Of a DNA stretch of 64,000 nt, positions 1 to 37,049 are shown piece by piece. The notes beneath the pieces were generated by a model that had not been told where the DNA came from, searched no databases, and saw only the letters and a list, made by a program, of their open reading frames with translations. The position numbers and the translations under genes were made by a program. Source of the stretch: an uncultured Nitrospiraceae bacterium (lineage in GTDB: Bacteria; Nitrospirota; Nitrospiria; Nitrospirales; Nitrospiraceae); contig CAVSTP010000003.1 of NCBI GenBank assembly GCA_963730935.1, positions 640,001 through 704,000 on the forward strand. Direction: 5' to 3'. The stretch's first letter is position 1. The number at the start of each line of letters is the position of its first letter.

Positions 1-2730
<2,730 letters not shown>

Positions 2731-2733
2731 GCA

Positions 2734-4203
2734 ATGACTCCCTGGTCTCAGCATCCGACGATCTATGAGATCAACACCTGGGTCTGGCTTCACGAGCTGA
2801 GCGAGCAGGCACAGCGTCCCGTCACCCTCGGCAACGTCCCGACGCAGGTCTGGGACGGCCTGGCCTTCTACGGATGTGACGCCGTCTGGTTGATGGGGGT
2901 GTGGGAGCGAAGTCCGGCGGGTATCGCAGTATCCATGCGAAACGATGCGCTTGTGAACGAATTCCGTCGGCTCTTGTCTGATTTTACCGCTCAAGACAAT
3001 GTCGGCTCCGCCTATTGCGTGAAGGATTACCGTGTGGACGCACGCCTCGGCGGTCCGAAAGGGTTGGCGCAGGCCAGATCGGAGTTGGCCGCACGGGGCA
3101 TGCGATTGATCCTGGATTTTGTGCCCAACCATGTGGCGCCGGATCATTCGTGGGCAACGGAACATCCGGAATACTTCATTCAAGGCAGCGCACCCGAGTT
3201 GGCCGAACGTCCCGGCGAGTTCCTCCGGATCGGCGATCATGTGCTGGCTTGTGGGCGGGATCCCTATTTCCCTCCTTGGCAGGACGTTTTACAGTTGAAT
3301 GCCTTCAGGCCGAATCTGCGGAAAGCCACCATCGCGACGGTCCTGTCGATCGCTGACCAGTGCGACGGGATGCGCTGTGACATGGCGATGCTGCTGCTCA
3401 ACCAGGTGTTTGAACGCACATGGGGGCAACGTGCCGGTGCCATGCCGCAGACCGAGTATTGGCGTGATGTGATCGGTGTCGTGAAGCAGCGGTATCCGGA
3501 TGTGCTCTTCATGGCCGAGGCCTATTGGGATTTGGAATGGCAGCTGCAACAGCAAGGCTTCGACTTCTGCTACGACAAGCGGCTCTACGATCGCCTGGAG
3601 CACGACAACCCGGAAGCGATCAGGCTTCATCTCTGCGCCGAGTCCGGGTATCAGCAGAAACTTGTCAGGTTCATCGAAAATCATGATGAGCCTCGTGCCG
3701 CAGCGACGTTCCCTGCGTTAAAGGCGAGGGCGGCGGCCGTCACGGTTTCCACCCTACAGGGCGCGGTGTTGTTCCACGACGGACAGTTCGAAGGGCGGCG
3801 CGTCAGACTTCCCGTGTTCTTGCGGCGTGGTCCGAAGGAGCCGACCGACCGCAACCTCCAGGAGTTTTACACGAAGCTTCTTCGAGCCCTTCGCCGCGAC
3901 GATTTCAGGGAAGGGCAATGGCAGCTCTGCGAGCGGACGGGATGGCCGGATAACCACAGCTATGCCAACCTGGTGGCCTGGTGTTGGACTCATGAAGAGA
4001 CGGGCCACCTCATTGTCGTCAACCTGTCCGACCAGCCGGCGCAGGGCAGGGTCCGGATTCCTGTACCGACTCTTGCCGGGAAAAGCTGGCGCGTGACGGA
4101 TGAATTCAGCGGGACGGTCTTTGAGCGGGAGGGGAATGAGCTGCAGCAAGACGGACTGTACGTCGAGCTCGATGCATGGGGTTTTCATGTGCTGAAGTTC
4201 TGA
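2734..4203 (+). CDS. GH13 alpha-amylase family protein
   Basis: GH13 conserved regions LDFVPNH, DGMRCDMA, AEAYW, FIENHDE. Confidence 0.85.
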   Translation: MTPWSQHPTIYEINTWVWLHELSEQAQRPVTLGNVPTQVWDGLAFYGCDAVWLMGVWERSPAGIAVSMRNDALVNEFRRLLSDFTAQDNVGSAYCVKDYRVDARLGGPKGLAQARSELAARGMRLILDFVPNHVAPDHSWATEHPEYFIQGSAPELAERPGEFLRIGDHVLACGRDPYFPPWQDVLQLNAFRPNLRKATIATVLSIADQCDGMRCDMAMLLLNQVFERTWGQRAGAMPQTEYWRDVIGVVKQRYPDVLFMAEAYWDLEWQLQQQGFDFCYDKRLYDRLEHDNPEAIRLHLCAESGYQQKLVRFIENHDEPRAAATFPALKARAAAVTVSTLQGAVLFHDGQFEGRRVRLPVFLRRGPKEPTDRNLQEFYTKLLRALRRDDFREGQWQLCERTGWPDNHSYANLVAWCWTHEETGHLIVVNLSDQPAQGRVRIPVPTLAGKSWRVTDEFSGTVFEREGNELQQDGLYVELDAWGFHVLKF

Positions 4204-4261
4204 GCGATGTATCATGGCGCAGTGGTCCCGGAGTAGAGCAAATCGGCCCAAGGAGGTGGAC

Positions 4262-4693
4262 ATGTGGCAGAGACGGTCATGGGGTTCGCTTTTGATACTG
4301 ATGGCCATGCTTAATTGGGGCTGCGGAGCACTGCAATCCATGGGCGGGACGGATGTCCTGACGGGGTTGCTGACCAACCAGTTGGGCGTCACGTCGAATC
4401 AGGCGATGGGCGGCGTGGGATCCATTCTCACCCTCGCAAAGGAACGGCTGTCGGGGATGGATTTCACCGCCTTGACCAAATTGATCCCCGGCGCAGATAC
4501 CTACATGAAGACCGCGAAAGACCTGGGTGCCGTGACGGGACCGGTTGGTGATCAGGCGGGGCTAACGTCTGCCTTCTCGCGGTTGGGGATGGGTCCTGAT
4601 ATGGTACCGAAATTCACGCAGACCCTTTCCGATTTTGTAGGGAAAGGGGGAGGAGAATCGGCCAAGAACCTTGTAGCAGCTGCCGTTCGGTAA
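4262..4693 (+). CDS. DUF2780-like lipoprotein
   Basis: RBS AAGGAGG before ATG 4262; lipobox-like LNWGC; L-x-x-QLGVT-x-x-QA-x-GG-x-G pattern. Confidence 0.65.
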   Translation: MWQRRSWGSLLILMAMLNWGCGALQSMGGTDVLTGLLTNQLGVTSNQAMGGVGSILTLAKERLSGMDFTALTKLIPGADTYMKTAKDLGAVTGPVGDQAGLTSAFSRLGMGPDMVPKFTQTLSDFVGKGGGESAKNLVAAAVR

Positions 4694-4712
4694 CGGCAGC
4701 AGGAGTACGATC

Positions 4713-5225
4713 ATGAAGGAAGCCATGGGACGCAGGTGGATAATAATACCGCTGCTCGTGCTGTCGGCATCCTGTGCGACGATGCCGACAGGCTTTGAAG
4801 CGCCGCGCGTCACGATTACCGATCTCACTCCCAAGGAGATGGCGATCTTTGAGCAGAAGTTCGACGTGAAACTGAGGATTCAAAACGCGAATGACACCGA
4901 ACTCAGCATCAACGGTCTTCGGTTTGACATCGAATTGAATGACCGCGAGTTTGCCAATGGTATGTCCGGGCAGCGCGTCACTGTGCCACGGTTTGGATCG
5001 GAAGTTGTGGACGTCGAAGTTTTTACGACGCTTGCCAGCTTTCTGCGTCAAGTCCAAGATCTCAGCGCGGGCGCAGGACAAAAAATCAGATACCGGCTGA
5101 AAGGCACGGCATTCGTTGACTCCCCCGGCACCTTCAAGGCGCCATTCGACGAGAAGGGTGAAATTGACCTGAATCTTGGGACTGGTGCTGAGAAGTCGCC
5201 AGTCGATGGTTCGAAGGGATTTTAA
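4713..5225 (+). CDS. LEA type 2 / WHy domain lipoprotein
   Basis: Lipobox LSASC; beta-rich LRIQNAND..LSINGLRFDIELN..FANG pattern typical of LEA_2. Confidence 0.75.
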   Translation: MKEAMGRRWIIIPLLVLSASCATMPTGFEAPRVTITDLTPKEMAIFEQKFDVKLRIQNANDTELSINGLRFDIELNDREFANGMSGQRVTVPRFGSEVVDVEVFTTLASFLRQVQDLSAGAGQKIRYRLKGTAFVDSPGTFKAPFDEKGEIDLNLGTGAEKSPVDGSKGF

Positions 5226-5240
5226 GAGAAGGACGCTCAC

Positions 5241-5948
5241 ATGAGGGCACGACTCACTACGGCCTTCAGACGCATGTTGGTCGGCATGGGAGTCACCATG
5301 ACGCTGGTCATGGTGACTCCCATGCCAGGGCTCTCGGCCGATGCGACGACACAGCAGCAACTCGTGGACAAGGCGCAACTGACGCTTGAGGCCTTTGCGT
5401 CCGATGGCCAGTTGAAGGATGTGTTCAAACAGCTGAGCAAGGAAGCGAGAGCGCTCTTCATCATTCCGCAGTTCATGCGGGGAGCCTTCATCTTCGGCGG
5501 CGCCGGCGGCAGCGGCGTGTTGATCGCACGGGATGAACGGACGGGAAAATGGGGAGATCCGGTGTTCTACAACATCGGCTCGGCCAGTTTCGGTGCACAG
5601 ATCGGTGCCGATGTCTCTGAAATGGTCTTGGTCGTCCGGACCAAGAAAGGGCTGGAAGAGTTTTTCACAAACGATTTCAAGCTTGGGGCCAATGCCGGGA
5701 TGGCGACCGGTCCCGTCGGCGCAGGCATGGCCACTCAAGGTATCACGGCGGATATCATCTCCTACGCCAGACAGAAGGGCGCATTTGCGGGCATGGCCGT
5801 CGATGGAGCGTTCGTGTCGGTTTCAAATGACTCCAATCAGGCGTATTATGGGAAATCCGTGCGCCCGACCGACATTATTGTGAAGAAGGAAATCGGAAAT
5901 CCCAAGTCACTGCAGCTTCGGGCCGCCGCTGATAAGCTAATGAATTAG
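5241..5948 (+). CDS. Lipid-binding SYLF (Ysc84) domain protein
   Basis: GAFIFGGAGGSGVL, ASFGAQIG, KGAFAG..DG, N.AYYG motifs; signal peptide. Confidence 0.85.
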   Translation: MRARLTTAFRRMLVGMGVTMTLVMVTPMPGLSADATTQQQLVDKAQLTLEAFASDGQLKDVFKQLSKEARALFIIPQFMRGAFIFGGAGGSGVLIARDERTGKWGDPVFYNIGSASFGAQIGADVSEMVLVVRTKKGLEEFFTNDFKLGANAGMATGPVGAGMATQGITADIISYARQKGAFAGMAVDGAFVSVSNDSNQAYYGKSVRPTDIIVKKEIGNPKSLQLRAAADKLMN

Positions 5949-5983
5949 ACGGCGAGCCGGAGATCTGTGAGCGCCACAGCTAG

Positions 5984-6994
5984 ATGAGCGAAAGGCCATG
6001 CGGTCGATCACTGGGCGCAGCAGTGCTGGGCATCTTCCTGATGTTCATGTGGAGTGGCCACGGATCGGCCCATGGGGAAGTCAACGGCACAGATCGCTCA
6101 TCCGAAAGCACGTCGAGCCCGGTGTTGGAGTCGCCGGCAATAGAGAACGAGCCCGAGAGCGAACCCGAGAGCGAACCCGAGGGACCTGCATCACCATCAG
6201 AAAAGGAACCCGAACGCCGGATCTTCAAGCGGATCGGGCCGCAGCCCATGACGCCGGAGCAGCGGGAAGAGGCCGAACGGCTTCGCAAGGTCGCTGCGAG
6301 ATACGGAACGGATCCCACGGCGATCGTGGGACGCATCCAACTCACCAGCCAATACCTCGATCTGACTCAGGGCGCAAACGCGACGGTATCGACGGTGCGC
6401 GTCGATCTCCCGTTTCGGAACGATTTTCTGCTCCGAATGGATATGCCGTTCCTCAGGACGAACGATCCCAATAACCCTGGAATGAGCGGTCACCGTGGCG
6501 TCAGCGATCTTGCCGTTACCGCCGCATGGCGCGCGTATAATACGCCAGAATACGCGCTCCTGGTTGGTGTACTGTCCACGTTTCCAACCGCCGCCCAGGA
6601 CACCCTCGGCTTGGGCAAGTACACGGTTGGCCCCGCAATTGCCACTGCCCGGTTCCTTCCTCGATTGGATTCATTCCTGATCGGCCTCTTGTCATATCAA
6701 ACGTCCGTGGGCGGAGATCCATCCAGAAAAGACGTCTCATTGTTCAACGTGACCGCGCAGGTGAATTCCTTCTGGGGACAGCGATGGTGGACCATCGTTC
6801 AGTCGGTCTGGCAAGTCGATTTCGAACGGAGCGGAAAAAGCAGCATGGTCATGGAATTCGAAGGCGGCAGGAATTTGATCGGGCGGGTAGGAGCCTACGT
6901 CCGGCCGGGCGTAGGAATCTATGGACGTGATGTCGCCGGGGCTTATATCTGGAATATTGAAGTCGGCATCCGCTACATGTTCAAGAGTTTCTGA
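5984..6994 (+). CDS. Secreted/outer-membrane beta-barrel-like hypothetical protein
   Basis: Signal peptide, acidic EPES linker, amphipathic beta strands, LGLGKYTVGP, C-terminal Phe. Confidence 0.55.
   Translation: MSERPCGRSLGAAVLGIFLMFMWSGHGSAHGEVNGTDRSSESTSSPVLESPAIENEPESEPESEPEGPASPSEKEPERRIFKRIGPQPMTPEQREEAERLRKVAARYGTDPTAIVGRIQLTSQYLDLTQGANATVSTVRVDLPFRNDFLLRMDMPFLRTNDPNNPGMSGHRGVSDLAVTAAWRAYNTPEYALLVGVLSTFPTAAQDTLGLGKYTVGPAIATARFLPRLDSFLIGLLSYQTSVGGDPSRKDVSLFNVTAQVNSFWGQRWWTIVQSVWQVDFERSGKSSMVMEFEGGRNLIGRVGAYVRPGVGIYGRDVAGAYIWNIEVGIRYMFKSF
6149..6181 (+). repeat. 12-bp in-frame tandem repeat (GARCCCGAGAGC x2.75, encodes EPES EPES EPE)
   Basis: Directly visible in the sequence. Confidence 0.8.
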
Positions 6995-6997: not shown

Positions 6998-7894
6998 TTA
7001 TTTCAGCGCTTCCGCGCCGCCGACGATGTCCATGAGTTCTTTGGTGATTACGGCCTGCCGGGTTTTGTTGTAGTAAATCGTCAGTTTCTTGATCAGTTCG
7101 CCGGCATTGCGCGTCGCACCGTCCATGGCTGTCATGCGGGCTCCCTGTTCTGCGGCCGACGATTCCAGCAGCATGCGATAGGCTTGGACGTGGAAATTAC
7201 GGTGCAGCAGTTGCTCCAACACTTCGGCTTCGCTCGGCTCGTAGAGATAGCCGCCGGGCATCTGCTCCATCGTGTGTTCAACGTCTTTCACGTCTGCAAT
7301 CTCGACAACCCAATCAATCGGAAGCAGCCGTTCGACGACGACACGCTGCTGAATGGCGGATTTGAACTCGTTGTAGATGGCATACACCGCATCGGTTCGC
7401 CCGGTCACATAGTCGTCGATGGCTTGAAGCTCCGTGCCCAGGAGCATGCCGTGCTCGAACGAGAGCTTGTCGAAGATGTCGACGACTTCGCGGCGGACCT
7501 TCCAGCTGCGTCGTCGGAAGAAATCGCGGCCTTTCTTGCCGATGACCGCCACTTCGACCTCCATCCCTTTCGACTCGAACTCCTTAAGCGCGGCGGCCGC
7601 AGTGCGAAGGATGTTGGCGTTGAAGGCGCCGCATAATCCCCGATCGCTCGTGACCACGGCAATGACGAGGTGATGCTCCTCACGCTTCTTGAGCAAGGGG
7701 TGCGCGTCTCGATTCACGCGCCGGCTGAGCGTTCGAATCGTATCCCGCATCTTGTGAGCGTACGGGCGGGCGGCGAGAATGCGGTCCTGCGTCCGCTTGA
7801 GCTTGGCCGCAGCGACCATCTTCATCGCTTTCGTGATCTTTTGGGTTTTCTTGACGGAATCGATCTTCCGCCTGACGGATTGGAGGCTTGGCAT
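6998..7894 (-). CDS. atpG: F1 ATP synthase gamma subunit (orphan copy)
   Basis: TQKITKAMKMVAAAKL, TSDRGLCGAFNANI, EQGARMTAMDGATRNA, NKTRQAVITKELMDIVGGAEAL; start taken at ATG 7894 (MPSLQS). Confidence 0.95.
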   Translation of the reverse strand: MPSLQSVRRKIDSVKKTQKITKAMKMVAAAKLKRTQDRILAARPYAHKMRDTIRTLSRRVNRDAHPLLKKREEHHLVIAVVTSDRGLCGAFNANILRTAAAALKEFESKGMEVEVAVIGKKGRDFFRRRSWKVRREVVDIFDKLSFEHGMLLGTELQAIDDYVTGRTDAVYAIYNEFKSAIQQRVVVERLLPIDWVVEIADVKDVEHTMEQMPGGYLYEPSEAEVLEQLLHRNFHVQAYRMLLESSAAEQGARMTAMDGATRNAGELIKKLTIYYNKTRQAVITKELMDIVGGAEALK

Positions 7895-8028
7895 ACAGGG
7901 TGATCCGAATGGGGAGCCGCACCGTACCATTTGGCTGCAAGGCAGGTCAAGGCAAGGGACAACGACGTTGCGACCTAACGGATCTCTGTTGTACTGTCGC
8001 GGCGTGGAAGACCATGAGGAGTGTCGAC

Positions 8029-8391
8029 ATGCTCAGCCATGAACTGTTGCGCGACGAGGGGATTCTGATCCTTCGGCCCCAGGGACCCCTTCAGGCGGGC
8101 GATTTCATCTCGCTTGCCACGGTTGTTGATCCGTATCTGCAGGAACACCGCACATTACGAGGGATTATGGTCGACGCGCAGTCTTTTCCGGGATGGGACT
8201 CGTTTGCCGCGCTGGTCTCCCACCTTGAATTTGTTCGCGACCATCATCGCCTGATCGGCAAGATCGCGGCGGTTTCAGATAGTCCGGTCCTTTCCCTGGC
8301 GCCCCAACTGGCCAAGCATTTTGTGAAGGCCGAGATTCGCCATTTCAGCGCGAACGAACGGGCAGCGGCGCTGGCCTGGCTTCGCCAGTAA
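8029..8391 (+). CDS. STAS/SEC14 (SpoIIAA-like) domain protein
   Basis: RBS GAGGAG; FPGWDSFAAL..HL.FVRDHH..I.KIAAVSD and EIRHF..E..AALAWL pattern. Confidence 0.8.
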   Translation: MLSHELLRDEGILILRPQGPLQAGDFISLATVVDPYLQEHRTLRGIMVDAQSFPGWDSFAALVSHLEFVRDHHRLIGKIAAVSDSPVLSLAPQLAKHFVKAEIRHFSANERAAALAWLRQ

Positions 8392-8530: not shown

Positions 8531-8546
8531 CTGTCAAATTTGACAG
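8531..8546. promoter_or_regulatory. Perfect 16-bp palindrome CTGTCAAATTTGACAG, putative transcription factor site
   Basis: Intergenic, about 105 bp upstream of fda; related sites at 27274 and 44204; -10-like TAGAGT at 8570-8575. Confidence 0.65.
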
Positions 8547-8651: not shown

Positions 8652-9554
8652 ATGAACACTCTCAGCTCTCACGAGCAACAACAGCGGCAGATGAAGACAC
8701 ATCCCGGTTTCATTGCGGCACTGGACCAAAGCGGGGGCAGCACGCCCAAGGCGCTGCATCAATATGGAATCAAGGAAGGAGCATGGTCCAACGACAATGA
8801 AATGTTTACTATCGTACATCAGATGCGCGCGCGCATCATTACCAGTCCCGGTTTTTCCGGCAAGCGGATCATTGCCGCCATCTTGTTCGAAGACACCATG
8901 AATAGGGAGATCGCGGGGAAACCTACTGCGGACTATCTTTGGAATGAGAAGCAAGTGGTCCCTTTCCTCAAAGTGGACAAAGGCCTTTTGCCTGAAGAGA
9001 ACGGGGTTCAGTTGATGAAGCCCATCTCCGGACTTGCCGCACTGCTCGACAAAGCCAAAACGAAAAACATCTTCGGGACCAAGATGCGTTCTGTCATCAA
9101 GGAAGCCAATGGAGCCGGCATCAAGAACATCGTGAATCAGCAGTTCGAGATTGGGGGGCAGATCATCTCCGCTGGCCTCGTACCGATCCTCGAGCCTGAA
9201 GTTGACATTCGCTGTCCTGAGAAGGGCAAAGCCGAAGGGCTGCTCAAGGACGCCATCCTGAAGCAACTCAGCGAACTGCCGGCGAATCAATTGGTCATGC
9301 TCAAGCTCACAATTCCGGATCAAGACGACTTCTACCTTGATTGCATTCGACATCCTAAGGTGTTGAGGGTCGTCGCGCTGTCGGGCGGTTATACGAGGGA
9401 AGAAGCCAACAACCGTCTGCGGCGGAATCATGGACTCATCGCGAGCTTTTCGCGGGCACTGGTAGAAGGGCTGTCGGCCCAGCAATCCGATGCTGAGTTC
9501 AACGCCATGCTGGATAAATTCATTCAGAGCATCTTTGATGCGTCCAATACTTAA
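8652..9554 (+). CDS. fda: Fructose-bisphosphate aldolase class I (bacterial Fda type)
   Basis: [50 protein letters not shown]. Confidence 0.92.
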
Positions 9555-9621: not shown

Positions 9622-10842
9622 ATGCGGATCCTGGTGATTAATAGCGGAAGCTCATCGATCAAATTCCGGCTCGCAGAGGTCGTAGAGGAAAAGGGCACAC
9701 TGGCAACGCGACCGGGCCTGCTCGAAGGGGCCGTCAAAGGGATTGGAGGCGCGCCGAGCGTCGACATGACTGGACAACTGGTGAGCCGTTCAACGACCAA
9801 GATAGAAGCTCGAGACCATACCCAGGCCATGCGTGTGCTCATGAATCAGCTTGGCAATTCGCTGAGCAGCATCCAAGCCGTGGGACACAGGGTGGTGCAC
9901 GGCGGAGACCGCTACGTCGAGTCCACTGTGATTACCGACCAGATTGAAGCTGGAATCGATGCGCTATCCGAATTGGCGCCGCTCCACAACCCTGCCTGTC
10001 TCGCGGGCATTCGGGGGGCGAAAGCGGCCTTGGGATCAACCGTTCCGATGGTGGCTGTCTTCGATACGGCGTTTCACCGAACGATGCCTGAAGTCGCCAG
10101 GCACTATGCGATCTCAACCGAGCTCGCCGATCGCCATCACATCCGCCGATATGGATTTCACGGGATCGCGCATGCGTCGCTCGCTAACGGCTACGGGGTC
10201 TGCACTGGAAACTCGTTGAAGCAGGCGCGCATCATCACGCTTCAGTTGGGCAACGGCTGTTCGGTCGCCGCGATTGCAGAAGGGAAATCGATCGAGACTT
10301 CGATGGGGTTTACTCCGTTGGAAGGCTTGGTTATGGGGACACGCTCGGGAGATATCGATCCTTCCGTCGTCAGTTATCTTTCCGAGCGGGAAAAAGTCGA
10401 ACCGGCCGAAGTGGAACGATGGCTCAACCAGCGATCCGGCCTCCTGGGACTCTCAGGACGATCCAATGACATGCGGGAGCTCTTGCGCGCCGTCGAGCAG
10501 GAAGGGGACCAGCGCGCCGAGTTCGCCGTCGATCTCTTTTGCTACCGGGTGCGTAAATATCTGGGCGCCTACCTGGCCGTATTGGGTGGCGCGGATGCGA
10601 TCGTCTTTGGAGGCGGCATTGGGGAAAACGCGCCGGAGGTTCGGAAACGAATCTGCCGGAACATGGAGTGGTGCGGGATGAGTGTTCATCCAGACCGCAA
10701 TCGGACTGCCGTAGGACTCAGCGCGGGGTCGGCGGGGAAGATCAGTACGGATGATTCGCGGGTGGCGGTGTACGTCGTGGCGGCCGACGAAGAAACATGG
10801 ATTGCAAAAGAAACGGCTCGCTGTGTGCGGGCGATCAATTGA
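9622..10842 (+). CDS. ackA: Acetate kinase
   Basis: ILVINSGSSSIKF, GHRVVHGG, LAPLHNP, FDTAFH, RRYGFHG, TSMGFTPLEGLVMGTRSGDIDP. Confidence 0.95.
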   Translation: MRILVINSGSSSIKFRLAEVVEEKGTLATRPGLLEGAVKGIGGAPSVDMTGQLVSRSTTKIEARDHTQAMRVLMNQLGNSLSSIQAVGHRVVHGGDRYVESTVITDQIEAGIDALSELAPLHNPACLAGIRGAKAALGSTVPMVAVFDTAFHRTMPEVARHYAISTELADRHHIRRYGFHGIAHASLANGYGVCTGNSLKQARIITLQLGNGCSVAAIAEGKSIETSMGFTPLEGLVMGTRSGDIDPSVVSYLSEREKVEPAEVERWLNQRSGLLGLSGRSNDMRELLRAVEQEGDQRAEFAVDLFCYRVRKYLGAYLAVLGGADAIVFGGGIGENAPEVRKRICRNMEWCGMSVHPDRNRTAVGLSAGSAGKISTDDSRVAVYVVAADEETWIAKETARCVRAIN

Positions 10843-10896
10843 TTATTTTGCAGGCGCCATCCATGAATCGGGGTGGCGGCAGGGAGGGAACGCCTC

Positions 10897-13302
10897 ATGG
10901 GAAATGCACTTTCGGATAAAGAGCTGAAGCTGATTGATGCGTATTGGCGGGCGGCGAATTATCTCTCCGTCGGTCAGATCTACTTGTTCGACAACCCGCT
11001 GTTGAAACAACCGCTGAAGAAAGAGCACATCAAACCCCGCCTGCTCGGCCACTGGGGTACGACGCCGGGGCTGAATTTTCTCTATGCGCACTTGAATCGA
11101 GTGATCAAGCAGCGGGACCTGAACATGATGTACATCATCGGTCCAGGGCACGGCGGTCCCGCGATCGTGGCCAACGCTTACATGGAGGGGACCTACTCGG
11201 AAGTGTATCCGAACATGGCTCAGGACGAAGAGGGCATGAAGCGGCTGTTCAAGCAGTTTTCATTTCCGGGCGGCATTCCGAGTCACGTGGCGCCGGAGAC
11301 TCCCGGCTCCATCCATGAGGGCGGTGAATTGGGCTACGCGGTGTCGCATGCCTATGGCGCGGCGTACGACAATCCCGACCTGATCGTCGCCTGCGTCGTC
11401 GGAGACGGGGAGGCCGAAACCGGTCCGCTGGCGACGTCGTGGCACTCGAACAAGTTTCTCAACCCACTCACCGACGGCGTCGTGCTCCCGATTCTGCATT
11501 TGAACGGCTACAAGATCGCCAACCCCTGTGTGCTGGCCCGCATCAGCCATCAGGAGTTGGACCAGCTCTTCCGGGGCTACGGCTACACCCCGTATTTTGT
11601 CGAGGGAAGCGATCCCGAGAAGATGCACCAGATCATGGCGGCGACGCTCGACACGATCATTGAAGACATACACCGCATCAAGACTGAGGCGCGGCGGACG
11701 GGTGCCAAGAAGCGGCCGCTGTGGCCGATGATCATTCTTCGTTCTCCCAAAGGATGGACCTGTCCAAAAGAAATTGACGGGAAACGGTGCGAGGACTACT
11801 GGCGGAGCCATCAAGTGCCGATGGGCGACATGGAAAAGACAGAACACGTCAAGATCCTCGAAAAATGGATGAAGAGCTACAAGCCGGAAGACCTCTTCGA
11901 CAAGACCGGCCGCCTGAAACCTGAGTTGGCGGAGATGCCGCCGAAGGGTGATCGCCGCATGAGTGCTAATCCGCATGCCAACGGCGGGCTGCTGCTCAGG
12001 GATTTGCGGTTGCCCGACTATCAGGACTATGCGGTCCAAGTCGTCAAGCCCGGCGCGACGACGGCAGAATCCACCCGCCACATGGGAAAGTTCTTGCGCG
12101 ACACGATGAAGCTGAATCTGGAAAGCCGTAATTTTCGTCTGTTCAGTCCTGACGAGAACAACTCAAATCGCTGGCAGGACGTGTTGGAAGTCACGAATCG
12201 CGCTTGGATGGCGGAGAGTTTTCCATATGATGATCACCTGGCGCCGGATGGCCGCGTGATGGAAATGCTGAGCGAGCACCAGTGCCAGGGATGGCTGGAA
12301 GGGTATCTCCTGACGGGTCGGCACGGGTTCTTTTCCTGCTATGAGGCGTTCATCCACATCATCGATTCCATGTTCAATCAGCACGCCAAATGGCTGAAGG
12401 TCTGTAACGAGATCCCCTGGCGGAGATCCATCGCCTCGCTCAACTATTTGCTGAGCTCTCATGTGTGGCGGCAGGACCACAACGGATTCAGCCATCAGGA
12501 CCCGGGCTTCATCGATCACGTCGTCAATAAGAAAGCCGACGTCGTGAGGGTCTATCTGCCACCCGATGCGAACACGCTCTTGTCCGTGACCGATCACTGC
12601 CTGCGCAGCAGGAACTACGTCAACGTCATCGTGGCGGGTAAGCAGCCGGCACCGCAATGGCTGACGATGGACCAGGCGATCAAGCATTGTGCGGCCGGTA
12701 TCGGCATTTGGGAATGGGCGAGCAACGACAAAGGCTCAGATCCCGACGTCGTCATGGCGTGTTGCGGGGACGTGCCCACGCTCGAAACACTCGCCGCCGT
12801 GGACATTATCCGGCAGTACGTTCCGGCTTTGAAGATCCGCGTCGTGAACGTGGTAAATCTCATGAAATTACAGCCGCCCAGCGAGCATCCGCACGGTCTT
12901 TCGGACTTCGATTTCGATGCACTCTTTACGAAAGACAAGCCCGTGGTGTTCGCCTTCCACGGCTACCCGTGGTTGATTCATCGTCTCACCTATCGAAGGA
13001 CCAATCACAAGAACCTCCACGTGCGTGGGTACAAAGAGGAAGGCACGACCAGCACGCCGTTCGACATGGTCGTCATGAACGATCTCGACCGGTTCCACCT
13101 CATTGGCGATGTCGTGGACCGCTTGCCGCAACTTGGGTCTCGGGCTGCCTATGCCAAACAGGCGATCCAGGAGAAGCTGCTCGAGCACAAGCAATACATT
13201 GCCAAATACGGCGAGGACATGCCCGAGATCACCAATTGGCAATGGGGGCAGGGAAGTGGCAAGACGAAGCGCACAAGCTCAACGGAAGGCGACAACGTCT
13301 AG
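10897..13302 (+). CDS. xfp: Xylulose-5-P/fructose-6-P phosphoketolase
   Basis: [23 protein letters not shown], ThDP motif [34 protein letters not shown]. Confidence 0.96.
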
Positions 13303-13333: not shown

Positions 13334-15808
13334 ATGACACAGGAACAGCTCCAACACTTGCTGCAGCAATACGGCGTGGGGCCCATCCAATTTTCCGGCA
13401 ATCACGACGCCCTGTATGAACGGCATTTGACCTTCGATAACGTCGTTGATCTCAAGAGCGCGACCATGCGGGAACGGTTTGAAGCGGCGGCGCATGCCAT
13501 CCGCGACATCGTGTCGCAACGCTGGCTGCTGACGGAGAAAACGTATGCCGAGAAGAATCCGAAGCGGGTCTATTACCTGTCGATGGAATATCTCCTGGGG
13601 AGGTCGTTTGCCAACAACATGACGAATGCGCTACTCCGCCCATTGGCAGCCGAACGTCAAAAACACCTAGGTCTAGATCCATTTGCATTGATCGAAAGTG
13701 AGCCGGATGCCGGACTGGGCAACGGCGGCCTTGGCAGATTGGCCGCCTGTTTCATCGATTCGATGGCGACGATGGAGATTCCAGGCATGGGGTACGGCCT
13801 GCGCTATGAGTACGGGATTTTCAAGCAAACGATCCAGGACGGGTGGCAACGGGAGCAGCCGGATAACTGGCTTCGGAGACCGGATCCTTGGGAGGTCGTG
13901 CGGCCGGATGATGCGGTCGAGGTGAAACTGAATTGTACGTTCGAACTTCGGGAAGGCATGCTGCGTCCCATCGTCGGTCGGCCTTCGGTTCTCCTCGGCA
14001 TCCCGTTCGATCGTCCGGTCATCGGTTACGGGGGCAAAACCATCAATACGCTGCGGCTCTGGGCGGCGAGCACTCCGGATTTTTTTGATTTTCAGCTGTT
14101 CAGTCGAGGGCATTTCGTGGGGGCGTTCGCAGAGATGCTTGCTGCGGAATCACTCACGCGCGTGCTCTACCCCGATGACTCGACAATCAGGGGGCAAGGT
14201 TTGCGATTTTTGCAAGAGTATTTTTTGGTGGCCTGTTCGCTGGGCGATCTGGTTCGGCGCTTTCGTCGTGGCAATCAAGATTGGAATGCTCTTCCGGAAA
14301 AAGCCGCCATCCAGTTGAATGACACCCATCCCACCATGGCCGTTCCCGAACTCATGCGTATCCTGCTCGATGAGGCCCATCTGGGATGGGATCAGGCCTG
14401 GGATCTCACACAACGGACGCTTGCCTATACGAACCATACCCTGTTGCCGGAGGCGTTGGAGACATGGCCGCTCGAATGGTTCGACGATATGCTGCCGCGG
14501 CATCTTGAAATTATTCTCGAGATCAACCGCCGCCTGCTGGAGGTGGTTCGAAACCGTTTTCCCGGAGACGACGGACGGCTAGCACGCGTCAGCCTTGTCG
14601 AGGAAGGGCAGCGGCGCAAGATCCGTATGGCCAACCTGGCGATTGTCGGGTCGCACAGCACCAACGGTGTGGCCGCCATCCATTCCAAGCTGCTCCGGAC
14701 GATGACCGTCAAGGACCTGGCCGACCTCTATCCCGAGCGGTTCAACAACAAGACCAACGGCGTTACCCCGCGGCGATGGCTGCTCCTGGCGAATCCGGCC
14801 CTCTCATCTGTGATTACCGAGGCCATCGGCGACGGATGGATTACCGATCTGAGCAAGCTTGCGCAGCTCAAGAAATTGGCCGACGATCCTCAATATCAAG
14901 AGGCGTTCCGCAAAGCAAAACGTGAAGCGAAGACGGCCTTTGCCCAGTGGCTTAAGACGACGTCCGGTCAATCCGTCGATCCGGACAGCATGTTCGATTG
15001 CCAAGTCAAACGCATTCACGAATACAAGCGGCAGCTGTTGAACGCGCTGCGCATCGTCGTGCTGTACAACCGCCTCCGTGAGAACCCCAACATGAGGATG
15101 GCCCCTCGAACGTTCTTTTTTGCCGGCAAAGCCGCGCCGGCCTATCACCTGGCCAAGGTCATCATCAAGTTCGTGAGCAATCTCGCCGGCACCATCGACG
15201 GGGATCCGAACGCTCGGGGAAAGATCAAAGTGGTATTCCTGCCCGAGTATTGCGTTTCGCTCGCCGAGCGGTTGATTCCCGCCACCGATGTCTCCAATCA
15301 GATTTCGACGGCCGGGTATGAGGCCAGCGGCACGAGCAATATGAAGTTCATGATGAATGGCGCGTTGACCTTGGGGACGCGAGACGGCGCTACGATCGAA
15401 ATGGCGGAGGAAGCGGGGGAGGATAACTTCTTTCTCTTCGGCCTCACGGCGGACCAAGTGGCGGGGAGCCGAGGTTGGTACGACCCATGGTGGCACTATG
15501 AACATGAGCCGCAAACGAGAGCGGCGCTCGATCTGATCTTCTCCAACTACTTCAGCCGGAATGAACCGGGAGCCTTTGCGCCGCTGGAACATGCGTTGCT
15601 GACGGGCGGGGATCATTACATGCATTTGGCCGACTTGACGTCCTACGTGAACGCCGACCGCGACGTCACCGATCTGTACGCCGACGCGAACGGTTGGGCG
15701 CGCAAGGCGATCTTGAACATTGCGGCCTCAGGGAAGTTCTCCAGCGATCGGACGATCGCCGAATATGCCGCGGGGATTTGGAATGTAAAGCCCTGTCCCG
15801 TTTCCTGA
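13334..15808 (+). CDS. glgP: Glycogen/starch phosphorylase
   Basis: GLGNGGLGRLAACF, IQLNDTHP, VKRIHEYKRQ, PLP site EASGTSNMKFMMNG. Confidence 0.96.
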   Translation: MTQEQLQHLLQQYGVGPIQFSGNHDALYERHLTFDNVVDLKSATMRERFEAAAHAIRDIVSQRWLLTEKTYAEKNPKRVYYLSMEYLLGRSFANNMTNALLRPLAAERQKHLGLDPFALIESEPDAGLGNGGLGRLAACFIDSMATMEIPGMGYGLRYEYGIFKQTIQDGWQREQPDNWLRRPDPWEVVRPDDAVEVKLNCTFELREGMLRPIVGRPSVLLGIPFDRPVIGYGGKTINTLRLWAASTPDFFDFQLFSRGHFVGAFAEMLAAESLTRVLYPDDSTIRGQGLRFLQEYFLVACSLGDLVRRFRRGNQDWNALPEKAAIQLNDTHPTMAVPELMRILLDEAHLGWDQAWDLTQRTLAYTNHTLLPEALETWPLEWFDDMLPRHLEIILEINRRLLEVVRNRFPGDDGRLARVSLVEEGQRRKIRMANLAIVGSHSTNGVAAIHSKLLRTMTVKDLADLYPERFNNKTNGVTPRRWLLLANPALSSVITEAIGDGWITDLSKLAQLKKLADDPQYQEAFRKAKREAKTAFAQWLKTTSGQSVDPDSMFDCQVKRIHEYKRQLLNALRIVVLYNRLRENPNMRMAPRTFFFAGKAAPAYHLAKVIIKFVSNLAGTIDGDPNARGKIKVVFLPEYCVSLAERLIPATDVSNQISTAGYEASGTSNMKFMMNGALTLGTRDGATIEMAEEAGEDNFFLFGLTADQVAGSRGWYDPWWHYEHEPQTRAALDLIFSNYFSRNEPGAFAPLEHALLTGGDHYMHLADLTSYVNADRDVTDLYADANGWARKAILNIAASGKFSSDRTIAEYAAGIWNVKPCPVS

Positions 15809-15837
15809 CAAGCGCGTGCACCGAACAGGTAGGTGTC

Positions 15838-16449
15838 ATGAACGAACATCTTCCCATCGTCTATCTCGCGAGGCACGGTGAAACGGCATGGACGATTTCG
15901 GGGCAGCACACAGGGCTGACCGATCTGCCGTTGACCGAACGCGGTGAGCGCACAGCCCGCAGACTAGGCGAACGGCTCAAAGGGTTGACGTTTGACTTAG
16001 TATTGACCAGTCCCCTGCAGCGGGCGGCCAGGACCTGCGAGCTTGCCGGCTTCAAGTCGGCGGCTGAAGTCGATAAAGACCTGGTGGAATGGGACTATGG
16101 TCAATATGAGGGACGCCGGACGGCCGACATTCTCGCGGAACGCCCGGGCTGGGAGTTGTTCCGCGACGGCTGTCCCGGAGGAGAGTCACCTCAACAAGTC
16201 AGCGTACGGGCCGACCGGGTGGTGAAGCGAGTGCGTGAGGTGGACGGAGACGTTCTCATCTTCACGAGCGGACATGTCATGCGAGTGCTCGCGGTGCGCT
16301 GGCTGGGGCTTGAGCCCTCGGTCAACTGCAAGTTCTTCATGCTGAGCACGGCGAGCCTGAGCGCCTTGGGGTATGAACACAATCGGTCCCGGCCGGTGAT
16401 ACGACTCTGGAACGAAACTCGTCACGTCGAGATGGGGCAGAACGATTGA
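15838..16449 (+). CDS. Histidine phosphatase (phosphoglycerate mutase family)
   Basis: RHGETAW, SPLQRA, EWDYGQYEG motifs; ATG at 15838. Confidence 0.88.
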   Translation: MNEHLPIVYLARHGETAWTISGQHTGLTDLPLTERGERTARRLGERLKGLTFDLVLTSPLQRAARTCELAGFKSAAEVDKDLVEWDYGQYEGRRTADILAERPGWELFRDGCPGGESPQQVSVRADRVVKRVREVDGDVLIFTSGHVMRVLAVRWLGLEPSVNCKFFMLSTASLSALGYEHNRSRPVIRLWNETRHVEMGQND

Positions 16450-16477
16450 ACGATCATAGCGAAAAGGGACGGCAATC

Positions 16478-18154
16478 ATGACCACGACCGCACGCAGCGC
16501 TCGCCCGAAGCTCAAGCGAATGACATTTCTCCCACGGCGGAAAGCCTGGAAGGCGCTGCAAGCTCATTATAAGGCTATGCAGGAGGTGCATCTGCGCACG
16601 TTGTTTGCGGAGGATGCTCAGCGAGGCACACGCTTGACCGCTGAAGCCGCAGGACTGTTTCTGGATTATTCCAAGAACCGGGTGACAGACGAGACCATCC
16701 GGCTGCTCGTACAGCTGGCCGAGGAGTCCGGGCTGCGCGACCGCATCGAGGCCATGTTCAGAGGCGACAAAATCAATGTGACGGAACATCGAGCGGTCCT
16801 GCATGTCGCCTTACGCGCACCGCGTGAAGCGTCAATTATGGTCGATGGTGAGAATGTGGTGCCCAAAGTCCATGCGGTGCTGGATCAAATGACCGTCTTT
16901 GCGAACCGTGTGCGGAGCGGCGATTGGAAGGGCCATACGGGCAAGCGGATCAAGAACGTCGTGAATATCGGCATCGGCGGATCGGACCTGGGACCGGTCA
17001 TGGCTTATGAGGCGCTCAAGTACTACAGCGAGCGGTCCATGACGTTCCGGTTCGTTTCAAATGTCGACGGGACCGATTTCACAGAAGCCGTCCGTGATCT
17101 CCAGCCCGATGAGACCTTGTTCATCGTGTCCTCAAAAACGTTCACGACGCTCGAAACCATGACCAACGCCAACAGCGCGCGCGAGTGGTCGCTCGCGGGC
17201 CTGGGCGGCGAACCGGCCGCAGTGGCGAAGCATTTTGTTGCGGTCTCCACGAATGCGGCGGAAGTCGGAAAGTTCGGCATCGACACCGCGAACATGTTTC
17301 CATTCTGGGATTGGGTGGGCGGCCGCTACTCGATGTTCTCGGCGATCGGACTCTCGACGATGCTGGCGATCGGTCCCGAGCAGTTCCGCGCCATGCTCAA
17401 TGGCGCTCATCAGATCGACGAGCATTTCCGCACCGCGTCCTTGGCAGAGAATCTCCCGGTACTCATGGGATTGCTCACGGTCTGGTACGTCAATTTCTTG
17501 GGGGCTGAGACCGTCGGGGTATTGCCCTATGAGCAGTATTTGAAACGATTCCCCGCCTATCTGCAGCAATTAACGATGGAGAGCAACGGCAAACACGTCA
17601 CCATCGACGGCAAGGGGGTGTCCTACGACACCGGCCCCGTGTTTTGGGGAGAGCCTGGGACCAACGGGCAACATTCGTTTTATCAGCTCATCCATCAGGG
17701 CACGAGGCTGATTCCTTGCGACTTCATCGCCTTTCACCGGTCGCTCAATCCGCTCGGCCGACACCACGAGTTGTTGGTGGCCAATGTCTTCGCGCAAACC
17801 GAGGCGCTGGCATTCGGCAAGACGGCCGAGGAGGTAAGAGCGGAGGGGACGCCGGAGTGGCTCGTGCCGCACCGGGTGTTCGAGGGAAACCGTCCCTCCA
17901 ATACGCTGTTCGCCGAGAGGTTGACGCCCGAGATGCTCGGCAAACTGGTCGCGCTGTACGAACACTCCGTGTTCACGCAAGGCATCATTTGGACCATCGA
18001 CTCATTCGACCAGTGGGGGGTCGAGCTGGGCAAGGTGTTGGCTCAACGCATCATTCCGGAGCTCGAAAGTCAGGAAGAGCCTGCGCTCAAACACGATAGT
18101 TCAACGAATCATCTGATTGGACGCCACCGTGCAAGGGCCCGCTCCAAGACGTAG
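16478..18154 (+). CDS. pgi: Glucose-6-phosphate isomerase
   Basis: [49 protein letters not shown]. Confidence 0.96.
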
Positions 18155-18170
18155 CTGAGTCTCGTCAAGC

Positions 18171-20294
18171 ATGAATGACAGACCACGCACTCTGCGCAGC
18201 GATTCTCCCGCTCGTTCAGAACGATCAGCCCTGTGGTCTCAAGGCGCGAGTGCCCCTCTCGGCGCGACCGTCACGGAAGGCGGTGTCAATTTCAGCATCT
18301 CCTCACGCGACGCCACCCACCTCGAACTGCTCTTCTTCGATCAGGCGGATGACCCGAAGCCATCGCAGATCTTCGAACTGGATCCGCGCGGGCACCGCAC
18401 GTATCACTACTGGCATGTCTTCGTGCCGGGCGTTTGCCCAGGACAACTCTACGGCTTCCGCGCTCACGGTCCCTTCGATCCCGCGCGGGGAATGCGTTTT
18501 GATCCTACTAAAGTGCTGCTCGATCCCTATGGTCGCGGTGTCGTCGTTCCGGAACAATACAGCCGTATCGCTGCCGGTCAGGATGGCGACAATGCTGCGA
18601 CAGCGATGAAGAGTGTGGTGGTGGATCCGTCCGCATATGATTGGGAGAATGAGCTGCCGCTCAGGCATCCTGACGCTCGGACCATCATCTACGAGATGCA
18701 CGTGCGCGGCTTTACGCGGCACCCAAGGTCGGGAGTCGCCGAACACGAGCGCGGCACCTATGCCGGCCTGATCGAAAAGATTCCCTATCTGCAGGAGTTG
18801 AGCATCACGGCCGTCGAGCTGCTGCCGATATTCCAGTTCGACGCTCAGGACTCCCCGCCGGGCAAAGTCAATTATTGGGGTTACGCACCGGTGTCCTTCT
18901 TTGCGCCCCATCAGGCCTATAGCTCTCGTCGAGAGCCTCTCGGGGCGGTCAACGAATTTCGCGACATGGTCAAAGCGCTCCATCGAGCCGGCATCGAGGT
19001 CATTCTCGATGTCGTCTTCAATCACACGGCCGAAGGAGACGAATGCGGGCCAACCCTCAGTTTCCGCGGCCTGGACAACAATGCGTACTACATCCTCGAG
19101 GAGGACCGATCGCATTACGCCAATTACACGGGCACCGGCAACACGCTGAATGCGAACCATCCCGTGGTCCGCCGCATGATCGTGGACAGTCTGCGTTATT
19201 GGGTGCAGGAGATGCACGTGGATGGATTCCGGTTCGATCTCGCGTCGATCCTGACGCGTGATGAGAACGGTCAGGTGATGCCAAGTCCACCGGTCTTGTG
19301 GGATATCGAATCAGACCCGTCGCTCGCCGGCACGAAACTGATTGCGGAAGCCTGGGATGCCGCCGGCCTCTACCAGGTCGGCAGTTTCATCGGAGATTGC
19401 TGGAAGGAATGGAACGGGCGCTTCCGGGACGACGTCCGCAGTTTCTTCCGCGGCGAAGAGGGATCGTTGGGCCGGTTTGCCGATCGCTTGGTCGGCAGCC
19501 CGGAAATTTACGCGCACAAGCAGCGCGAGCCGGAGCAAAGCGTAAACTTCGTGACCTGTCACGACGGCTTCACGATGAACGACCTGGTCTCCTACAACGG
19601 AAAGCACAACGAGGCGAACGGTGAAGGCAACCGCGACGGCGCCGACGACAACCGGAGCTGGAATTGCGGCGTTGAAGGGCCGACCGATGATGCGGCCATC
19701 GAAGAGCTCCGAAACCGCCAGGTAAAGAATTTCCTCACTGTCACGCTGCTCTCGATCGGCGTCCCGATGATTCTGATGGGCGATGAGGTGCGAAGGACGC
19801 AGCATGGCAACAACAATGCCTACTGCCACGATAACGAGCTCAACTGGTTCGATTGGACCCTGGTGGCCAAACATGCCGATGTCCATCGGTTTGTGACACT
19901 GCTCAACCAACGACGGATTTTGCGGCCTGTCGAGCACGAACGCCAACGGATGACTCTCGCTCAGCTCATCCAGCAGGCCAATAAATCGTGGCATGGAGTG
20001 AAAGTTGGGCAGCCTGACTGGAGTCCGACTTCTCACAGCGTGGCGCTGAACGCGGAGATCAAACACGAAGGATTTGTAGGGTATTTTATCTTCAACGCTT
20101 ACTGGGAACATCTGGAATTCGAGCTGCCGATGCCCCCTGGCAGCCCATGGCGCCGGTGGATTGATACCGCGCTCGACTCGCCGATGGATATTGTTCCGTG
20201 GCGGACCCTGGTTCCCGTTACCGGTCTTGCCTATCAGGTCCAACCGCGGTCGGTGGTCGTATTGGTTGCCGACCTCACGGGCACTTCAAGATGA
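18171..20294 (+). CDS. glgX: Glycogen debranching enzyme (isoamylase)
   Basis: NYWGY, DVVFNHTAEG, DGFRFDLA, IAEAWD, NFVTCHDGFT, GNNNAYC. Confidence 0.94.
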   Translation: MNDRPRTLRSDSPARSERSALWSQGASAPLGATVTEGGVNFSISSRDATHLELLFFDQADDPKPSQIFELDPRGHRTYHYWHVFVPGVCPGQLYGFRAHGPFDPARGMRFDPTKVLLDPYGRGVVVPEQYSRIAAGQDGDNAATAMKSVVVDPSAYDWENELPLRHPDARTIIYEMHVRGFTRHPRSGVAEHERGTYAGLIEKIPYLQELSITAVELLPIFQFDAQDSPPGKVNYWGYAPVSFFAPHQAYSSRREPLGAVNEFRDMVKALHRAGIEVILDVVFNHTAEGDECGPTLSFRGLDNNAYYILEEDRSHYANYTGTGNTLNANHPVVRRMIVDSLRYWVQEMHVDGFRFDLASILTRDENGQVMPSPPVLWDIESDPSLAGTKLIAEAWDAAGLYQVGSFIGDCWKEWNGRFRDDVRSFFRGEEGSLGRFADRLVGSPEIYAHKQREPEQSVNFVTCHDGFTMNDLVSYNGKHNEANGEGNRDGADDNRSWNCGVEGPTDDAAIEELRNRQVKNFLTVTLLSIGVPMILMGDEVRRTQHGNNNAYCHDNELNWFDWTLVAKHADVHRFVTLLNQRRILRPVEHERQRMTLAQLIQQANKSWHGVKVGQPDWSPTSHSVALNAEIKHEGFVGYFIFNAYWEHLEFELPMPPGSPWRRWIDTALDSPMDIVPWRTLVPVTGLAYQVQPRSVVVLVADLTGTSR

Positions 20295-20324
20295 ATATTC
20301 GTAGTGTTTTGAGAGGAGTGAGCT

Positions 20325-21140
20325 ATGGCAAAAGACGGTAAGGGAGACGGCAACGGCAATTCCAAACTCAAGCGCAAGGAATACGAGAAGGAGCTGCGCC
20401 GGCTGCAGGCCGAATTGTGCCACCTTCAGGCCTGGGTAAAGCACAAGGGGCTTCGAATCATTATCCTGTTCGAAGGCCGCGATGGCGCTGGGAAAGGGGG
20501 GACCATTCGCGCCATTACCGAGCGTGTCAGTCCCCGTGTGTTCCGCGTGGTGGCGTTGCCTGCCCCCTCCGATCGCGAAAAGACGCAGATGTACTTACAA
20601 CGCTACATGACGCACTTCCCGGCGGCGGGTGAGATCGTGATTTTTGACCGGAGCTGGTACAACCGGGCAGGAGTCGAACATGTCATGGGCTTTTGCACCA
20701 AGGAGCAGTACAAAGCCTTTCTCGAACATGCGCCGACGGTCGAGGGCTACATCACCAAGGCAGGCATCCGACTGGTCAAGTACTGGCTCGAGGTCAGCAA
20801 TGACGAGCAAGAACGGCGCTTCCAGGCTCGCCTCGATGACCCGTTACGCCAGTGGAAACTCAGTCCGATAGATCTTCCTTCGCGGGAGAAATGGTACGAG
20901 TACTCGCGCGCACGCGACCGGATGCTGGAGGCCACGGACTCGAAGCACGCACCCTGGCATCTCGTGCGGTCGGACAATAAGCGAAGGGCGCGATTGAATA
21001 TTATCAAACACTTCTTGAGTTCTATCCCCTACAAAAAGATGCCCTATAAGAAGGTCAAGCTGCCCAAGCGATCGCACAAGCATGAATATGACGACCAGGC
21101 GACGCTGAAGGGAAGGAAGTTCATTCCCGAGGTGTACTGA
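20325..21140 (+). CDS. ppk2: Polyphosphate kinase 2
   Basis: FEGRDGAGKGG (Walker A), FDRSWYNRAGVE, WKLSP.D. Confidence 0.94.
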   Translation: MAKDGKGDGNGNSKLKRKEYEKELRRLQAELCHLQAWVKHKGLRIIILFEGRDGAGKGGTIRAITERVSPRVFRVVALPAPSDREKTQMYLQRYMTHFPAAGEIVIFDRSWYNRAGVEHVMGFCTKEQYKAFLEHAPTVEGYITKAGIRLVKYWLEVSNDEQERRFQARLDDPLRQWKLSPIDLPSREKWYEYSRARDRMLEATDSKHAPWHLVRSDNKRRARLNIIKHFLSSIPYKKMPYKKVKLPKRSHKHEYDDQATLKGRKFIPEVY

Positions 21141-23958: not shown

Positions 23959-23984
23959 AAGAGCGATCACGCCGACGAGGGTGG

Positions 23985-32513: not shown

Positions 32514-32574
32514 TACGTAGGTGATTGGATGATGACCTGGGCCATCACGTTGCGGATCGAGCTCAAGGAGGATT

Positions 32575-33586: not shown

Positions 33587-33624
33587 AATACCCGGATCAA
33601 ACGACGACCCATAGGAGACCGATC

Positions 33625-37012: not shown

Positions 37013-37049
37013 ATCACGTGAGTAGATCGCTGCATTTAGCTCAAAACGC

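Follow-up and report, generated by a model that had tools for sequence, protein, structure and literature searches.

The gamma subunit, the shaft of the F-type ATP synthase, is normally encoded together with alpha and beta in one operon. The stretch of Nitrospiraceae DNA analysed here (64 kb, hereafter the window) carries an F1 gamma gene that stands alone (atpG2, encoding gamma2; 6998..7894, minus strand), which raises the question of which enzyme such a subunit could serve and why it is kept. The initial annotation, made from the sequence alone, took it for a swappable alternative rotor that alters synthesis and hydrolysis when ATP comes from substrate-level phosphorylation.

The 298-aa frame at 6998-7894(-) has no internal stops, and its product exceeds the cut-offs of both F1 gamma profiles (TIGR01146, 322.2 bits against 194.45; PF00231, 327.3 bits against 39.9), in keeping with the intact AtpG with hallmark motifs originally described. 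All rotor motifs are intact, including TSDRGLCG and the Met that corresponds to M23 of E. coli. The ORF finder proposed a longer frame from 7930, but that position falls within the promoter discussed below, and MPSLQS, at the 7894 position, is the start of nearly all gamma2 homologues. The AlphaFold model has a normal gamma fold (pLDDT 85), with helices 4-59 and 222-297 forming the antiparallel coiled coil and five strands in the alpha/beta globular domain; residues 196-215 (pLDDT < 50) lack strands, leaving this loop unresolved in the model. In Foldseek comparisons, the top structural matches were F1 gamma chains throughout (TM 0.81-0.87 for the six best chains and 0.81 for 3oaa_G, the E. coli gamma), and a protein atlas search recovered gamma clusters only. 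On the N-ATPase gamma model TIGR03323, the protein scores 107.5, below the cut-off of 282.35. Gamma2 belongs to AtpG and is neither an N-ATPase nor a phototroph-type gamma. Its gene is one of two credible minus-strand genes in the window, as first proposed: the other is a chalcone-isomerase-like gene (26359-27009), and none of 17 further minus-strand ORFs matches Pfam.

The genome (99.89% complete, six contigs) encodes a second gamma, gamma1, 64% identical to gamma2, on contig C2 in the main operon atpH-atpA-atpG-atpD-atpC, while the Fo a and b genes lie on C1. Profile searches with PF00006 and PF00119 recovered one gene each for atpA, atpD and subunit a: genome-wide, PF00006 matched only the two genes on C2 and a weak locus at C3:194608, which may be FliI or Rho, and PF00119 matched only C1. 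None of the 47 other ORFs scanned in the window is an ATP synthase gene, so the reported absence of atpA, atpD and Fo genes there stands. With single genes for atpA, atpD and subunit a, there is no second complete atp operon of the N-ATPase kind, and the only catalytic and membrane partners available to gamma2 are therefore those of the main enzyme; the proposal of an extra, alternative gamma fits this gene complement. An N-ATPase remnant is ruled out by the TIGR03323 score, the PF00006 and PF00119 counts and the position of gamma2 in the gamma tree. A split operon with atpG2 as the only atpG is likewise rejected for this genome, where the operon copy is present, and is the situation in 14 relatives.

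On the low-coordinate side of atpG2, beyond its 3' end, a plus-strand run convergent with it (13..6994) ends 3 bp from its stop and encodes an MGH1-like hydrolase, an amylase-family protein, DUF2780, LEA_2 and Ysc84 proteins, and a 336-aa protein (5984-6994, +) without a Pfam or NCBIfam match. On the other side, the STAS/SEC14 (SpoIIAA-like) gene from which atpG2 had been said to diverge is confirmed by a PF11964 match (8029..8391, +). It is followed on the plus strand by class I fructose-bisphosphate aldolase (fba, 8652..9554; NF003784), acetate kinase (ackA, 9622..10842; TIGR00016) and phosphoketolase (xfp, 10873..13302; NF003619), all above cut-off, and by glgP, a histidine phosphatase gene, pgi, glgX and ppk2 (13334..21140), assigned by profile matches. 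The label "fermentation operon" given to these genes is fair for the route from glycogen through phosphoketolase to acetate kinase, but the wider cluster looks like one for general stress survival; it extends to an rRNA operon (16S, tRNA-Ile, tRNA-Ala, 23S; 59738-64000).

Across relatives, at least one of xfp, ackA, ppk2, fba or the histidine-phosphatase gene lies within 6 kb of gamma2 at 38 of 44 loci, so that the glycogen/phosphoketolase setting is conserved well beyond this genome. The six remaining loci are short or belong to G075, G242 and G291, and in G075 a pgi fragment adjoins gamma2. Gene order and orientation around gamma2 vary widely, and none of the 38 intact genes adjoins atpA or atpD, the usual AtpG position; placement between these two is a habit of the AtpG family, not part of the definition of the protein. 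The 336-aa gene, sometimes as two paralogues, and Ysc84 often flank gamma2. The STAS gene adjoins it at only 9 of 44 loci and is lineage-limited, which leaves a functional tie between the two weak. The linkage is also one-way: of the 219 genomes (out of 284) that have xfp, most lack gamma2, and no gamma was present in the 16-20 kb read around similar clusters in G245 (single-contig), G073, G084 and G035.

Elsewhere in the window, positions 48559-53657 encode a Rieske protein, a copper-oxidase/cytochrome c fusion (NirK-like), a cytochrome c and a cytochrome b-cytochrome c fusion, followed by an RND pump; similar genes also occur near gamma2 in G128 and near a stand-alone gamma remnant in G085. 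Positions 23625-25302 and 32449-39525 hold fragmented, overlapping ORFs (pieces of patatin, HAD, DUF1254/DUF1214 and hydrolase genes) that represent either decayed genes or assembly indels. A search of the genome for amoA returned no match, and the control gene likewise gave no signal.

To define the spread of gamma2, we surveyed 284 Nitrospiraceae genomes of at least 85% completeness. Matches of at least 74% were recovered from 36 of them (genus g1, 16/23; g20, 2/3; g33, 1/34; g34, 5/110; g35, 3/4; g36, 9/62), and four further genomes (G292, G293, G300 and G301) carry a gamma2 split by a frameshift, giving 40 of 284. G259 and G206 hold another type of stand-alone gamma, for a total of 42 carriers. 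Outside the family, 117 genomes of the same phylum were surveyed and none had two canonical gammas; a plasmid search gave no match above 60% identity. Among cultured organisms, Nitrospira japonica encodes a protein (P0044) that is 86% identical to gamma2 and carries its signatures. Both copies are present in the single-contig genomes G001, G009 and G031.

In a quick-search protein tree of 125 gammas (20 distant operon sequences out of 145 were excluded), the 38 intact gamma2 sequences form one clade, separate from the operon copies (SH-aLRT 100) on a stem of 0.5 changes per site, and this clade is nested inside the family's own F-type gammas. Within g1, the dS values of gamma1 and gamma2 between genomes are similar, a sign that the two have long been inherited together by vertical descent. 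A recent foreign origin of gamma2 in this lineage can be set aside, as its dS tracks that of gamma1 and the GC (0.582) and GC3 (0.755) of the two genes are the same. Across genera the picture is different. Monophyly of the g34 gamma2 sequences was rejected (p-AU 1.5e-123): that of G223 nests among g1 and that of G198 among g36, whereas both atpD sequences group with g34. By these phylogenies, gamma2 has been transferred across genera. Its distances correlate about equally with those of xfp (r 0.47) and atpD (r 0.53) in 19 genomes, which indicates mixed inheritance.

The fate of the operon copy bears most directly on whether gamma2 works as a rotor. In 25 genomes, gamma1 has been deleted or reduced to scars between intact, adjacent atpA and atpD; the status of G287 could not be judged. 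In the 12 gamma1-deleted genomes measured, the atpA-atpD spacer is 94-589 bp, against 1004 bp here. The scars differ between lineages, and five separate assemblies (G275, G291, G297, G298 and G300) have one common junction, a fusion of the N- and C-terminal ends that has since decayed; together, the shared decayed junction and the differing scars indicate that the deletions are real. G128 appears to show the process under way, with a decaying gamma1 that bears frameshifts and substitutions in the SDRGLCG motif beside an intact atpD. On an atpD tree (840 nt; 74 genomes picked for interest and not at random, with G247 and 35 titled loci left out), gamma1 loss requires 12 changes, nine of them forced by starred branches. 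Within the 284-genome set, loss is recorded for 15 of the 42 carriers of a stand-alone gamma and for at least 8 of the other 242 genomes, the latter figure being a lower bound because not every operon was read. In a separate case, the G247 locus (L236) is missing atpA altogether, along with the end of atpH and the greater part of atpG, which reflects either a larger deletion or an assembly collapse.

In 15 of the 25 gamma1-deleted genomes, no F-type gamma was found other than a stand-alone one: the one in G259, and gamma2 in 14 (G006, G027, G075, G076, G185, G186, G223, G243, G244, G256, G291, G295, G300 and G301). In the other ten, all drafts (G007, G011, G029, G074, G156, G275, G283, G296, G297 and G298), no F-type gamma was found. 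On the atpD tree, most of these fall together with carriers; in the five that were tested, the cluster is missing or fragmentary, and the G156 contig ends inside ackA; incomplete assembly is the likely explanation. Genes of the N-type ATPase are present in at least G007, G029, G156, G283 and G297. With gamma1 gone and gamma2 as the sole F-type gamma, gamma2 can serve as a general rotor. Given the many genomes with no other gamma, gamma2 is very likely a functional rotor of the main ATP synthase. The swap with the operon copy thus goes further than had been guessed, gamma2 having replaced gamma1 in many relatives.

Selection on the two copies is closely matched. Among 20 two-copy genomes, median dN/dS is 0.056 for gamma2 and 0.054 for gamma1 (30 of 190 pairs, those with both dS < 1.5; the pairs are not independent), and among genomes with gamma2 as the only gamma found, it is 0.079 for gamma2 (60 pairs, likewise not independent). 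For gamma1, the median is 0.059 in 25 carriers and 0.050 in 28 other genomes, some of them of unknown status. By this measure gamma2 is under strong purifying selection, the same as gamma1, and both copies are intact and selected within one genome, as in a paralogue pair of the ATPC1/ATPC2 kind; a pseudogene or relaxed selection is excluded for atpG2. A low dN/dS alone is not decisive on tuning, since faulty subunits would poison the complex.

The differences between the two proteins are unevenly placed. In this genome, they agree at 44/50 and 46/53 positions in the two helices but at only 76/142 in the globular domain, 8/30 in the loop 193-222 and 14/23 in 223-245. Gamma2 is longer by +2 and +4 residues and lacks the 30-39 residue phototroph insertion; no phototroph hairpin is predicted in the AlphaFold model, in which the loop has low confidence. 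Derived and near-fixed in gamma2 are K16, R135, D139, W195 and H231-R-N-x-H235, together with a two-residue insertion at 157-158 that is absent from all 106 operon gammas; position 231 is Pro in 103 of these 106 and His in gamma2. Conversely, S13, V14, A90, Q250 and E266 are common to gamma2 and basal relatives, and there the change is derived in gamma1. Position 12 is D in 28 of 38 gamma2 sequences and position 16 is K; as these are opposite in charge direction, the sign of any effect is unpredictable. Gamma2 has one Cys in 32 of 38 sequences and two in the other six, without the redox cysteine pair of chloroplasts. The gamma foot and the 193-235 region presumably face epsilon and the c-ring. 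A comparison by eye of the epsilon C-terminal halves between genomes that lost and genomes that kept gamma1 revealed no evident change.

A standard promoter and terminator scan at atpG2 gave nothing, and a promoter pattern emerged only from comparing relatives. The predicted sigma70-type promoter (7921..7950, -), conserved in relatives, consists of TTGACC, an 18-nt spacer ending in TGG, and TACGGT. The general pattern (TTGAyn, 17/18 nt ending TGn, TAnnnT) lies within 150 bp upstream of 31 of 38 gamma2 genes against a shuffle mean of 0.005, having been derived from the same upstream regions in which it was counted. The genome holds 53 such sites, 45 of them outside long ORFs, including one upstream of atpH and one of this extended -10 type about 240 bp before the 16S gene in the window (59467-59496, +). 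We infer from these motifs that the atpG2 promoter is of the housekeeping type and that the gene is transcribed. RNA contigs with pieces of atpG2 at about 92-97% identity were recovered in 4 of 4 runs, in which an intergenic stretch is covered too, so that DNA carry-over may account for these contigs; shares in the seven RNA runs were small throughout (0.05-0.12).

The cluster itself has a different candidate signal. The palindrome TGTCA-N4-TGACA, upstream of fba at 8532..8545, recurs in the clusters of relatives and has 20 copies in the genome (including G000 C1:12797, C3:628333, C3:632655, C4:910813 and C4:1509035), with others near catalase, YihY/BrkB, SDR, transaldolase, BON and glyoxalase genes, a gene set that we take to suggest a stress regulon. 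The motif is thus a candidate operator of a Nitrospira stress regulon that does not obviously include atpG2: with up to one mismatch, it lies upstream of only 2 of 38 gamma2 genes.

Further cases suggest that gamma is exchanged as a unit. In G259, the stand-alone gamma (L264:6270-7133) occupies the gamma2 site behind the gamma2 promoter. Its ends are gamma2-like (89% nucleotide identity in the first window and 81-86% in the last, to L037 and L162), whereas its middle is closer to the G085/G206-type gamma (68-80% versus 49-69%); by sequence, it is a mosaic of gamma2 ends and a foreign middle. G206 carries the second-type stand-alone gamma at L255:7782-8621, and among the matches read in context (371 genomes, E<=1e-125), no stand-alone gamma of the G259 type was found beyond it, those in G003, G020, G085, G095, G097 and G034 being operon copies. 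Over its whole length, the operon gamma of G003 (L131) shares 80-97% identity with that of G073 (L307), a member of another genus, with that of G020 (L130) a close sister, whereas the atpD of both genomes nests in the main group. This suggests that their operon atpG was replaced in place by an allele of another genus beside a native atpD. G085 retains the remnant of a deleted stand-alone gamma. Separately, an additional complete F1 operon (atpH-A-G-D-C) is present at L256 in G097, and its gamma is G073-like.

From these observations, gamma2 would be made in trans during ordinary growth and would compete with gamma1 for alpha3beta3/epsilon, so that two-copy cells would hold a mixed enzyme population. 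The weakest step is that gamma2 would tune coupling or hydrolysis latency differently from gamma1. Such tuning would most likely be useful when glycogen-derived ATP (ackA, ppk2) must sustain the cell, and the operon copy would be deleted where it adds too little. A difference in tuning would explain the persistence of both copies and the continued association of gamma2 with the cluster. It would also explain the distribution of the changes fixed in gamma2, which avoid the coiled coil and lie instead in the globular foot, in 193-235 and at position 16. We consider the chances about even that gamma2 is an exchangeable rotor tuned differently from gamma1. A stronger form, which we put forward tentatively as a rather unlikely one, holds that gamma2 complexes are a reversible (hydrolysing, proton-pumping) form and gamma1 complexes a latent synthase, with the gene acting as a mobile single-gene rotor cassette. 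If true, this would put into genetically encoded form the hypothesis of 'two forms of F1Fo', as far as that is set out in the part of PMC10049701 available to us, the two forms would support survival on glycogen and polyphosphate, and gamma alleles would be exchanged and recombined independently of alpha and beta.

The alternative that survives best, though we think it somewhat unlikely, makes gamma2 a spare with the same function as gamma1 and no difference in regulation. The two would stem from an old duplication, with gamma2 carried in a mobile stress cluster; either copy could be lost, through reciprocal loss or displacement by a gene from elsewhere than the operon, and any benefit would be one of dosage at most. 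The frequent clean deletion of gamma1, the housekeeping-type promoter of gamma2, its patchiness even within g1 (16/23) and the deleted remnant in G085 are all as such a duplicate would predict, as are the different alleles seen in the stand-alone slot (the G259 mosaic, G206) or the operon slot (G003, G020); the low dN/dS could reflect the purging of missense changes. Yet both copies have been kept across dS of about 1-1.5, with gamma1 in carriers showing no marked relaxation, the long stem (0.5 changes/site) is followed by near-invariant gamma2-specific residues, and the linkage to one cluster persists through many rearrangements.

Less probable still is the regulated swap of the initial annotation, here in the form of gamma2 being induced under anoxia or starvation and replacing gamma1 to yield an ATP-driven proton pump. 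The link to xfp, ackA, ppk2 and glgP at 38 of 44 loci makes this idea attractive, as does the fermentative persistence proposed for Nitrospira (PMC7078480, seen in part). In G283 (L229) and G300 (L230), N-type ATPase gamma genes sit directly beside ppk2-like genes, which echoes the gamma2-ppk2 adjacency in g36. The promoter class, however, is common to atpH and rRNA, the cluster palindrome marks only 2 of 38 gamma2 genes, the orientation of gamma2 to the cluster varies, and gamma2 has to function during normal growth in the 14 genomes where it is the only gamma found; with xfp in 219 of 284 genomes, mostly without gamma2, these points speak against a gamma swapped in specifically under substrate-level phosphorylation.

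A further possibility is that divergent alleles are exchanged because they resist an inhibitor, whether endogenous, an antibiotic, a toxin or a phage protein, that targets the exposed gamma foot. This would accommodate the swapping of gamma alone while alpha and beta stay, the foreign middle of the G259 mosaic, the in-place replacements in G003 and G020 and the cross-genus transfer, but we regard it as very improbable, given that gamma2 is strongly conserved within its clade instead of diversifying, that no inhibitor was identified and that the neighbourhood is metabolic, not defensive. A role outside ATP synthase, or a binning or assembly artefact, can be all but dismissed: the ten gamma1-deleted drafts without a gamma show that assemblies do lose the region, but two copies occur in single-contig genomes (G001, G009 and G031), the rotor motifs are intact, the deletion scars are common to, and decayed across, assemblies, and the GC and GC3 of gamma2 match those of gamma1.

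The reading of gamma2 as a differently tuned, exchangeable rotor has partial parallels in known systems. Compared with canonical bacterial F1 gammas (E. coli 3OAA, C. thermarum 5IK2), gamma2 is alike in family, fold, N- and C-terminal helices and TSDRGLCG, but it is encoded alone, with its own predicted promoter, as an additional copy that has moved between genera and repeatedly replaces the operon copy. By analogy, it would work most like the Arabidopsis ATPC1/ATPC2 pair, which, in the portion of PMC5522872 seen, are likewise two gamma paralogues for one enzyme, the second able to replace the first when expressed; the same source offers a plant precedent for gamma tuning hydrolysis. The plant second gamma differs in thioredoxin regulation and tissue, whereas the Nitrospira gamma2 lacks the phototroph insertion and Cys pair and is bacterial and mobile. 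Aquifex aeolicus, a bacterium that likewise has a duplicated gamma, carries a second, very divergent one; it is one sequence from one species, for which the sections of PMC4154653 consulted describe no conserved clade, no linkage and no case of the main copy being replaced, and the other two gamma duplications there (Table 2) belong to species with a doubled full locus. The N-type ATPase of Nitrospirales (PMC12342949, in part) also involves extra ATP synthase genes at an accessory locus, sometimes near ppk2-like genes, but it is a whole second enzyme whose gamma is 23-37% identical, while gamma2 is a single subunit nested in F-type gammas.

Particular regions of gamma are known to set hydrolysis. 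On the evidence of the excerpts seen, these can be the hairpin of cyanobacterial gamma (PMC8390522), the mycobacterial loop (PMC5990651, PMC10049701) or the N-terminal 8KRRIR12 of C. thermarum (PMC5990651). The hairpin and the loop are non-coiled-coil parts, and gamma2 likewise differs most from gamma1 in such parts, although the cyanobacterial/phototroph and mycobacterial inserts measure 30-39 and 14 residues (PMC8390522, PMC10049701), against +2 and +4 in gamma2 with no predicted hairpin. A literature search, with subscription papers mostly outside its reach, returned no description of a stand-alone Nitrospira gamma or of operon-copy loss. In the portions seen, the Nitrospirales survey (PMC12342949) covers only enzymes of the F, N and V/A types, and its supplementary file 5 gives two AtpG locus tags for strains Nam74 and Nam80 without comment.

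In this family, then, gamma has been duplicated, moved across genera, recombined and, on many occasions, substituted for the native copy, with alpha and beta remaining in place, which makes atpG unreliable as a single-copy marker in Nitrospiraceae. The result is a set of natural gamma1-only, gamma2-only and two-copy backgrounds on near-identical stators, which allow one to ask how gamma sets hydrolysis latency and coupling, and whether a cell runs two forms of ATP synthase. This bears on how nitrite oxidisers and their comammox relatives survive gaps in their energy supply.
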